Positions 38,855-39,295 of a stretch of DNA of 64,000 nucleotides are shown here, piece by piece. The notes beneath the pieces were generated by a model. That model saw only the letters and a list, made by a program, of their open reading frames with translations. It did no database searches and was not told the DNA's origin. The stretch lies in NCBI RefSeq assembly GCF_988243305.1, contig NZ_OZ547136.1; one strand, 5' to 3'. The position numbers and the translations under genes are program-made. Numbering within the stretch: the stretch's first letter is position 1; each line of letters starts with the position of its first letter.

Positions 38855-39295
38855 ATGAAACGACTTCTGATTCTTACGGCACTCCTGCCGTTTGTCGGCT
38901 TTGCACAGCCCATTAATACTCTGAACAACCCTAACCAGCCGGGGTATCAGATCCCCAGTCAGCAGCGGATGCAAACCCAGATGCAAACGCAGCAAATCCA
39001 GCAAAAAGGGATGCTGAATCAGCAACTGAAAACGCAAACTCAGTTGCAACAACAGCATTTAGAAAACCAGATAAACAATAATTCACAGCGGGTGTTGCAG
39101 TCACAGCCGGGGGAGCGAAATCCCGCCCGGCAGCAAATGCTGCCCAACACCAACGGCGGGATGTTAAACAGCAACCGTAATCCGGATAGTTCGTTGAATC
39201 AGCAGCATATGCTGCCGGAGAGGAGAAACGGCGACATGCTGAATCAGCCCGGCACGCCGCAGCCTGATATACCGTTGAAAACTATTGGGCCGTAA
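38855..39295 (+). CDS. yhhA: secreted Gln/Asn-rich protein YhhA
   Basis: 146-aa ORF with a signal peptide followed by a Q/N-rich low-complexity region. Confidence 0.8.

Follow-up and report, generated by a model that had tools for sequence, protein, structure and literature searches.

YhhA of Escherichia coli, a conserved Gln/Asn-rich protein with a predicted signal peptide and a possible protective or binding role in the stationary-phase periplasm

The open reading frame (ORF) at 38855..39295 (plus strand) of a 64,000-nucleotide stretch of contig NZ_OZ547136.1 (RefSeq assembly GCF_988243305.1), referred to below as the window, raises the question of what a small secreted protein with such an abundance of glutamine and asparagine might do, and whether its composition is more than filler. 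The frame begins with ATG and continues uninterrupted for 146 codons to a TAA stop, and a strong Shine-Dalgarno sequence, GGAGG (38843..38847, plus strand), is located 7 nt 5' of the start. It is almost certainly the E. coli gene yhhA, as the original prediction, made from the nucleotide sequence, had named it: the orthologous place in RefSeq carries the label "yhhA: DUF2756 family protein", and the product matches both the Pfam family DUF2756 (PF10956; E = 1.1e-60, 202.9 bits at a cut-off of 21) and, along residues 1-146 of 146, the NCBIfam equivalog PRK10350 (E = 1.9e-79, 264.6 bits at a cut-off of 136). Membership in the DUF2756/YhhA family is certain, the window protein being a full-length member with the same locus, length, and motifs and no difference from the family. 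Eight synonymous changes and one non-synonymous change separate the gene from yhhA of K-12 JM109, the sole residue change being Gly133 here for the Ser133 of most strains. As both gene and family had been known and annotated before, we offer no new discovery but a sharper description of a "y-gene", one of those still left in the best-studied of all bacteria, that is abundantly expressed, stress-induced, near-universal in E. coli, and odd in composition. The DUF2756 family itself has neither an assigned function nor a solved structure, and the earlier statement that the function is unknown holds in that sense. The reading that we favor, and to which as a whole we give a probability of about 40%, is that YhhA protects or binds without catalysis, as a mostly disordered protein in the periplasm of stationary-phase cells.

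The compositional bias is pronounced. Gln and Asn together make up 32% of full-length YhhA, the top share among 86 ORFs compared (all Met-initiated open stretches of at least 100 amino acids in the six frames of the whole window), where the runner-up reaches 18%. The most frequent residues of the full-length protein include Gln (19.9%), Asn (12.3%), Leu (11.6%), Pro (10.3%), and Met (5.5%); in the mature chain (residues 18-146) the respective values are 22.5, 14.0, 9.3, 10.9, and 5.4%, so that 36% of it is Gln or Asn, and it contains no Cys, Trp, or Phe and only one Tyr. The same tendency is seen in an alignment of 81 orthologues, none of which has Cys or Trp and in which the Gln plus Asn share varies from 32 to 44%. 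Leu follows five of the seven Met residues of the mature chain, a count reached in 5 of 100,000 shuffles (p = 5e-5), and the resulting ML motif recurs as KGMLN, QQMLP, GGMLN, QHMLP, and GDMLN. Given the top Gln plus Asn share in the window and the excess of ML over shuffled sequences, the bias is real and beyond chance. The original prediction had spoken of Q, N, M, and L repeats, quoting residues 40-67. The richness in these four residues was confirmed, but Pro (11%) matches Leu in prominence and exceeds Met, and what repeats is the specific ML motif.

A trivial possibility, that a protein of such composition is simply drifting, disagrees with its pattern of substitution. In 19 pairwise comparisons the ratio of non-synonymous to synonymous divergence (dN/dS) was 0.05-0.16 overall and 0.07-0.44 in the C-terminal tail, and for the Gln-rich part of most close pairs it was as low as 0.01-0.05; purifying selection thus acts on the reading frame. 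Six of the seven mature Met residues and many single Gln residues are at least 93% conserved among the orthologues. Thus YhhA is not a drifting low-complexity filler. The term "low-complexity", as applied to it earlier, is true of the composition but misleading on constraint, since the protein is conserved position by position and the term understates the fixed placement of Gln, Met, and Gly.

The N-terminus has the layout of a Sec-type signal peptide (residues 1-17; 38855..38905, plus strand), with the n-region MKR, an 11-residue h-region (hydropathy peak 2.7), and the c-region GFA. By this rule-based reading of the n/h/c regions, signal peptidase I is predicted to cleave between GFA and QP, i.e., before Q18; small residues occupy positions -3 and -1, there is no lipobox Cys, and A17-Q18-P19 are at least 95% conserved. 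Lacking Cys, YhhA is not a lipoprotein. Export is very probable from these sequence features, and, with a Sec-type signal and no lipobox, the mature chain of about 129 residues should be soluble in the periplasm, to which proteomics of envelope fractions also points. The signal peptide noted in the original prediction is thereby upheld, and is moreover conserved in the orthologues. YhhA was detected by mass spectrometry in surface extracts of Shiga toxin-producing E. coli, being named in the legend of a figure of the 15 most abundant proteins per strain (PMC9731836), in Salmonella Infantis (PMC4265081), and in extended-spectrum beta-lactamase-producing E. coli under antibiotic stress (PMC9927464), and in proteomic lists it stands beside the known periplasmic proteins Ivy, PsiF, YmgD, and ZraP. 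Hence the ORF is translated, and a lack of translation, named earlier as what would refute the prediction, is contradicted by detection in three settings together with purifying selection. That YhhA is made, and is abundant in envelope extracts, is well supported.

An entirely different destination has been proposed: YhhA would be a type III effector, injected into host cells by enteropathogenic or enterohaemorrhagic E. coli, and its clustered S/T-Q motifs would mimic substrates of ATM-family kinases. The idea comes from a study that lists YhhA, shows conserved S/TQ and QS/T sites, and takes the status of a validated effector from SecretEPDB (bioRxiv 10.1101/364117). We found seven S/T-Q sites, a mild excess over shuffles (p = 0.015), and the presence of YhhA in surface or extracellular extracts could be read in the same direction. 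However, the excess of TQ is a consequence of the QTQ pattern in the Gln-rich helix, the primary experiment underlying the SecretEPDB entry is untraceable, and YhhA lacks the features of an effector: it has a canonical, cleavable Sec signal peptide (again by the rule-based reading), which routes it to the periplasm, and its spread as a gene of a core locus is unlinked to any type III secretion system (T3SS). The gene occupies a fixed housekeeping locus rather than a pathogenicity island, is listed in the RpoS regulon, and is present in nearly all E. coli (5424 of 5426 complete genomes) as well as in diverse genera of Enterobacteriaceae, including many environmental ones. Most E. coli genomes lack the type III system of the locus of enterocyte effacement (LEE). 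We regard an effector role as very improbable.

The mature protein has three parts. In an AlphaFold model computed from a 25-sequence alignment (mean predicted local distance difference test score, pLDDT, 62; predicted TM-score, pTM, 0.27), the Pro/Asn-rich N-segment (residues 18-33; 38906..38953, plus strand) has no confident fold (pLDDT about 51-55). It carries the sole Tyr and is a candidate short linear binding motif: conservation is at least 95% at N21, N24-N27, and Y31, and most close pairs show a dN of about zero. The Gln-rich segment (residues 34-82; 38954..39100, plus strand) is predicted to form one continuous polar alpha-helix (block pLDDT 71-92) with QQKGMLNQQ at its center. Here conservation reaches at least 95% at Q37, R38, Q40, M43, Q46, Q47, Q49, G52-Q57 (the KGMLNQQ core), Q61, Q65-67, and Q72, while only R38 and M43 never vary in the most diverse alignment. 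No side of the predicted helix is hydrophobic; an amphipathic, coiled-coil (heptad), or beta pattern was rejected, as no periodicity of residues 34-82 was significant against shuffles (p = 0.38 for alpha, 0.08 for beta, 0.33 for any angle).

The third part is a disordered tail (residues 83-146; 39101..39292, plus strand), for which pLDDT is below 50 (residues 87-145). Two units, each some 24 residues long, lie in tandem within it, 93-116 (39131-39202) and 117-141 (39203-39277); both contain QQxMLP and NGxMLN, and the tail ends with IPLKTIGP. The two units align with each other, and a duplication is supported by the DNA direct repeats D1, D6, and D7, spaced by 72-81 nt. E. albertii YhhA lacks exactly the first unit (24 amino acids), and one Kosakonia protein appears to have three. 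A C-terminal end of the form [IVL]P[LV]KTxxP is found in roughly half of the orthologues; the proteins of Enterobacter, Lelliottia, Leclercia, and some Citrobacter end directly after the last ML motif. Disorder, proposed earlier as something to be checked, is thus predicted both by the model and by the charge-hydropathy relation, in which the mature chain falls on the disordered side of the boundary (0.345 vs. 0.424); disorder of YhhA by IUPred has also been reported (bioRxiv 10.1101/364117). No enzyme or fold family was matched in Pfam and PDB-sequence searches with YhhA; the best hit of a PDB profile search, a fragment of LytS (E about 0.3), was discounted.

Two side observations concern variation in these parts. 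In E. coli C41(DE3), Pro97 of the QQMLPNT motif (codon 97, window 39143-39145) is replaced by Leu, a change deemed incidental by the authors (PMC4632034). Rare in-frame length variants of E. coli YhhA (96-165 amino acids) in the protein database (P0001-P0036 and P0098; alignment A1) arise by duplications or deletions between short repeats of the Gln-rich part and leave both protein ends unchanged. A phase-variation device was considered and rejected, as the 441-bp form was present in every complete E. coli genome sampled; for the same reason, and with only 20 of 5424 genomes below 95% identity, the length variants are rare.

The density of Gln and Asn allows a reading in terms of assembly. The best 80-residue stretch of YhhA contains 36 Gln or Asn residues, and the range in the orthologues is 31-38. 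Michelitsch and Weissman are reported to have defined, in 2000, a Q/N-rich domain by at least 30 such residues per 80 consecutive ones, and by this threshold YhhA has one, as do all 81 orthologues. The protein could then be a self-assembling "polar zipper", whose Gln segment drives homo-oligomerization (a coiled coil, an amyloid-like stack, or a condensate) in the periplasm or at the cell surface; there it could form a hydrated gel or influence Q/N-dependent amyloids, curli among them. YhhA resembles the prion-like domains of the Sup35N type both in Q/N density and in its conserved Gln positions, single Gln residues being conserved rather than freely exchangeable, and a confidently modeled lone helix without a hydrophobic face is often a sign of folding on assembly. 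Curli are under sigma-S control, and the probable sigma-S control of yhhA counts in favor of this idea. On the other hand, YhhA contains 11% Pro and its segment is predicted to be helical rather than beta, in which it differs from the curli subunits CsgA and CsgB; it matches neither curlin repeats nor any other amyloid family in Pfam, tests for heptad, alpha, and beta periodicity gave nothing significant (p = 0.08-0.38), and no experimental sign of YhhA aggregation is known. Self-assembly of this kind seems unlikely, and its strongest form, that YhhA is a rare bacterial exported Q/N polar zipper undergoing reversible, Gln-driven self-assembly in the stationary-phase periplasm, is slightly less likely still. 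If true, such an assembly would protect the envelope when water is lost, or would adjust amyloids that depend on Q/N, for instance curli.

The conserved Met residues suggest another alternative, in which YhhA works through Met-based chemistry, either as a periplasmic Cu(I)/Ag(I) sponge similar to SilE and PcoE or as a sacrificial oxidant sink re-reduced by MsrP, the methionine sulfoxide reductase of the periplasm. Like these small, Met-containing sponges, YhhA is predicted to be disordered and exported to the periplasm; Met forms 5.4% of the mature chain, with six of its seven residues at least 93% conserved, and yhhA is induced under oxidative as well as other stresses (PMC9501238). But the ligand sets of SilE and PcoE are missing: YhhA has no HxxM, MxxH, MxxM, or MxM, only one MxxxM, one HM, and two His residues, and Met almost always stands in the fixed ML dipeptide, which points to hydrophobic contact rather than to a ligand set. 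Nor does YhhA match the SilE/PcoE family or lie on a metal-resistance island, and the publications consulted reveal no connection with the cus, cue, or msrPQ regulons. A lone match to Metal_resist, in one of 25 family members (the distant homologue P0168, E = 8e-4), is below the curated cut-off and takes in the signal peptide, and was rejected. A metal or oxidant function thus appears improbable.

What is known of expression agrees with a protein of non-growing cells. The yhhA start is separated by a 119-bp spacer (38736-38854) from the divergently transcribed ggt, and a purine-rich block resembling GGAGG is retained upstream of yhhA in all 18 aligned genera. Two blocks of the spacer are conserved across the same genera. 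The first, TAAGCCTGGT (38770..38779), in which TAAGCCTGG is nearly invariant, is a possible site for a regulator; alternatively, its minus strand (ACCAGGCTTA) may provide ggt with a sigma-S-like -10 element. The second, GTAAACTTAA (38819-38828), includes a candidate sigma-S-type -10 element of yhhA, TAAACT followed by TAA (38820..38828, plus strand), with GTAAACTTA conserved in the 18 genera; phylogenetic footprinting identified the conserved element as TAAACTTAA. Transcription is predicted to start near 38832, giving a leader of about 23 nt, and a strict two-hexamer scan for sigma-70 found no promoter in the spacer. In SELEX (systematic evolution of ligands by exponential enrichment), a peak of the sigma-S holoenzyme is located in the ggt/yhhA spacer (PMC5493296). 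The gene is in the list of the RpoS regulon and is up-regulated after cold downshift (PMC4057180), increases together with rpoS at the transition to stationary phase (PMC2241611), is elevated 5.6-9.9 fold when lipoprotein transport is blocked by LolCDE inhibition (PMC5105897), and goes up in acid (PMC2270276, PMC7824302) and under several classes of stress including the oxidative one (PMC9501238). We consider sigma-S control of yhhA likely; the promoter is probably of the sigma-S type and located in the spacer common with ggt, and its induction by acid, cold, envelope, and other stresses, as well as in stationary phase, is well supported. Beside TAAGCCTGGT, at 38756-38766, there is an inverted repeat GGGG-N(3-7)-CCCC, present in many genera with differing loops, which may form a hairpin in the ggt leader.

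We return to the protective or binding protein proposed at the outset. The absence of an enzyme-like fold, together with disorder, hydrophilicity, and the Met-Leu motifs, argues for a non-catalytic role. The mature chain would comprise a Pro/Asn/Tyr N-segment, a long polar Gln-rich helix, and a flexible tail, with conserved Met-Leu "stickers" separated by Gln/Asn/Pro "spacers". It may act without catalysis, as a very hydrophilic holdase or shield in the stressed periplasm: the Met-Leu motifs and the Gln surface would attach to envelope proteins at their exposed segments, or else to a single specific partner, and the bound proteins would stay hydrated and soluble once growth stops. This mechanism of protection or binding is itself a tentative proposal, and we hold it as rather doubtful. 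Convenient handles for experimenters are the ML motifs, the N-segment, the central KGMLNQQ core, and the candidate promoter element TAAACTTAA.

Among known systems, the closest in physical character are the hydrophilins, defined by a hydrophilicity index above 1 and more than 6% Gly (PMC3983491, quoting Garay-Arroyo 2000). YhhA has a grand average of hydropathy (GRAVY) of -1.05 in full and -1.40 in the mature chain, and 6.2% Gly, so it falls within both limits, the latter at the borderline. Hydrophilins and proteins resembling the late embryogenesis abundant (LEA) type, e.g., YciG of E. coli, are like YhhA small, stress-induced, very hydrophilic, and disordered; in contrast, they are typically charged (rich in Glu and Lys) and cytoplasmic, whereas YhhA is rich in Gln, Asn, and Pro, nearly uncharged, and predicted to be exported. 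A second comparison is with Spy, CpxP, and ZraP (LTXXQ; Metal_resist clan), which are small, stress-induced, exported, helical, and Gln-containing, and have an ATP-independent job of the kind proposed for YhhA. Unlike them, YhhA has no LTXXQ motif and no predicted helical hairpin; the Pfam scan gave no LTXXQ match for it, and homology was rejected by hhalign, with probabilities of 0.1-0.2% for the mature sequences (with hand-entered sequences of Spy, CpxP, and ZraP). The likeness of YhhA to periplasmic ATP-independent protective proteins is therefore best taken as an analogy and not as membership. If either the protective or the assembly idea is true, an uncharged, Gln-rich class would be added to the known periplasmic stress proteins.

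Several points weigh against a protective or binding protein. Firstly, no phenotype, partner, or biochemical activity of YhhA is known in the literature, and the rare natural losses (a deletion in strain A16, and no match in 2 of 5426 genomes) mean that the gene is at least sometimes dispensable. Secondly, YhhA is of the uncharged polar type, with 10 Lys or Arg and 6 Asp or Glu residues and 2 His, whereas the classic hydrophilins and LEA proteins are highly charged. Thirdly, a surface for binding clients in the classical manner is not apparent, since the predicted helix lacks a hydrophobic face. Fourthly, the periplasmic location rests on the rule-based signal reading and on crude envelope extracts. 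Finally, single residues of the N-segment and the helix are strictly conserved, as would be expected of a protein with a specific partner or a defined assembly rather than of a generic shield.

This last point leads to the alternative that YhhA is a regulator of one partner, the N-segment and the KGMLNQQ core docking on a single envelope protein (an enzyme, a sensor, or Ggt), which would be inhibited, activated, or tethered in stationary phase, as by the small periplasmic inhibitors induced by sigma-S or Rcs. Position-specific conservation with near-zero dN in residues 18-82 speaks for it, as do the proteomic lists, in which YhhA occurs together with Ivy, PsiF, YmgD, ZraP, and other inhibitors and stress proteins of the periplasm. 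A further argument comes from the locus. The order ggt (minus strand, divergent; true start at 38735), yhhA (plus), ugpQ (minus, convergent; 39282-40025) is common to the window, the RefSeq annotation, and 78 of 80 species loci, so that yhhA stands beside ggt with the common 119-bp control region in those loci, and the same ggt/DUF2756/ugpQ order surrounds distant members at 35-50% identity. But synteny inside one bacterial family reflects general conservation of gene order and is weak as evidence for functional linkage, the high abundance of YhhA suits a bulk role over stoichiometric regulation, and no partner is known. Ggt requires free alpha-amino and alpha-carboxyl groups on its gamma-glutamyl substrates; protein-bound Gln is therefore not a substrate, which counts against Ggt as the partner, and action of Ggt on the YhhA glutamines was rejected on these enzymological grounds. 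A regulator of a specific partner is thus conceivable but unlikely; it and the protective protein are not mutually exclusive.

Distribution of the gene is narrow and chromosomal. A DNA match to yhhA was found in 5424 of 5426 complete E. coli genomes, invariably on the chromosome. The family is small, with matches to only 64 clusters at 50% identity among 1.84 billion representatives, and relatives confirmed by tblastn occur in 138 species genomes of a 100,044-species set. The locus search, seeded with alignment A2 (A3 being too diverse), retained the 80 species loci mentioned above, almost all of them titled with Enterobacteriaceae genera, including Escherichia, Citrobacter, Enterobacter, Buttiauxella, Kosakonia, Franconibacter, Atlantibacter, Cedecea, Leclercia, Lelliottia, and others. 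Between genera YhhA evolves fastest of the three neighbors (53-82% identity, compared with 82-93% for Ggt and 79-92% for UgpQ). Mobile origins were considered and rejected: the matches filed under phages are mis-filed Salmonella chromosome contigs and those filed under plasmids are chromosomes of 4.8-4.9 Mb, hence yhhA is neither a phage nor a plasmid gene. It is inherited vertically and belongs to the core genes of the Enterobacteriaceae and their close relatives.

Some loci have unusual surroundings. Homologue P0168 (87 amino acids; L084:4001-4264, on a 109-kb JGI metagenome contig) is situated between genes for a large terminase and a protease/capsid protein, a phage-like context unlike that of all other DUF2756 members; it has no match in the phage collection. 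In the genomes with homologue P0172 (L087-L089, 2680-3750), genes for a CesT-type chaperone and a type III effector of the AvrPphF/HopF type lie between ggt and the DUF2756 gene. In E. coli A16 (L083: 3001-3817), yhhA has lost its 3' half and ugpQ its 3' end through the deletion, and the annotated frameshifts in ugpE and ugpA further indicate that the ugp end of this locus is decaying. The window itself contains a small island between yhhY and ggt (34552-36955), with genes for a 392-aa Hcp-domain protein (a type VI tube protein with a C-terminal extension), a YrhA-family protein, and the Imm35 immunity protein (yrhB). In K-12, yrhB also adjoins ggt, and in strains Ecol_244 and KK19-02 yhhY adjoins ggt directly.

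At the 3' side, the convergent yhhA (plus) and ugpQ (minus) coding regions overlap by 14 nt (39282..39295), according to the ORF coordinates and the RefSeq annotation of K-12 JM109. A terminator-like hairpin (39342..39380, plus strand) with a 10-bp GC-rich stem followed by UUUAUU is located 47 nt past the yhhA stop. The hairpin proper (39342-39375) and its UUUAUU are antisense within the ugpQ coding region, and no other terminator-like hairpin is available to yhhA; the segment 39290-39400 folds at -40.2 kcal/mol (z = -3.4). A simple terminator scan missed it because the loop exceeds 8 nt. We infer that it serves as the yhhA terminator, and, given that it lies inside ugpQ, the transcripts of both genes must overlap; yhhA and ugpQ are listed together among "excludon" candidates from RNA-seq (PMC12288877). 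An Rfam search of 38500-39600 gave only a chance match to isrG (E = 0.98).

Codon usage within yhhA yields a few further observations. Set against other species-level genomes of Escherichia, the Gln-rich part (38954-39100) shows 26-33% synonymous differences at its two-fold codons, vs. 6-9% in the rest of yhhA and 9-13% in ugpQ and ugpC. A strongly raised synonymous rate, as a Nei-Gojobori pS of 0.57 vs. 0.09-0.23 elsewhere in yhhA would imply, was rejected: the two-fold codon count gives a 2.5-3 fold excess (p = 0.006-0.06, the comparisons being non-independent), and none is seen within E. coli. The ratio of CAA to CAG is 8:11, interleaved, in the Gln-rich part vs. 1:6 in the tail. Finally, the Q-H-M-L of the tail is encoded by a perfect 12-nt palindrome, CAGCATATGCTG (window 39205-39216), and Q-Q-M-L by a near-palindrome (39133-39144); both form small hairpins in the fold of the antisense RNA from the ugp 3' end, for which the overall z is -3.4.

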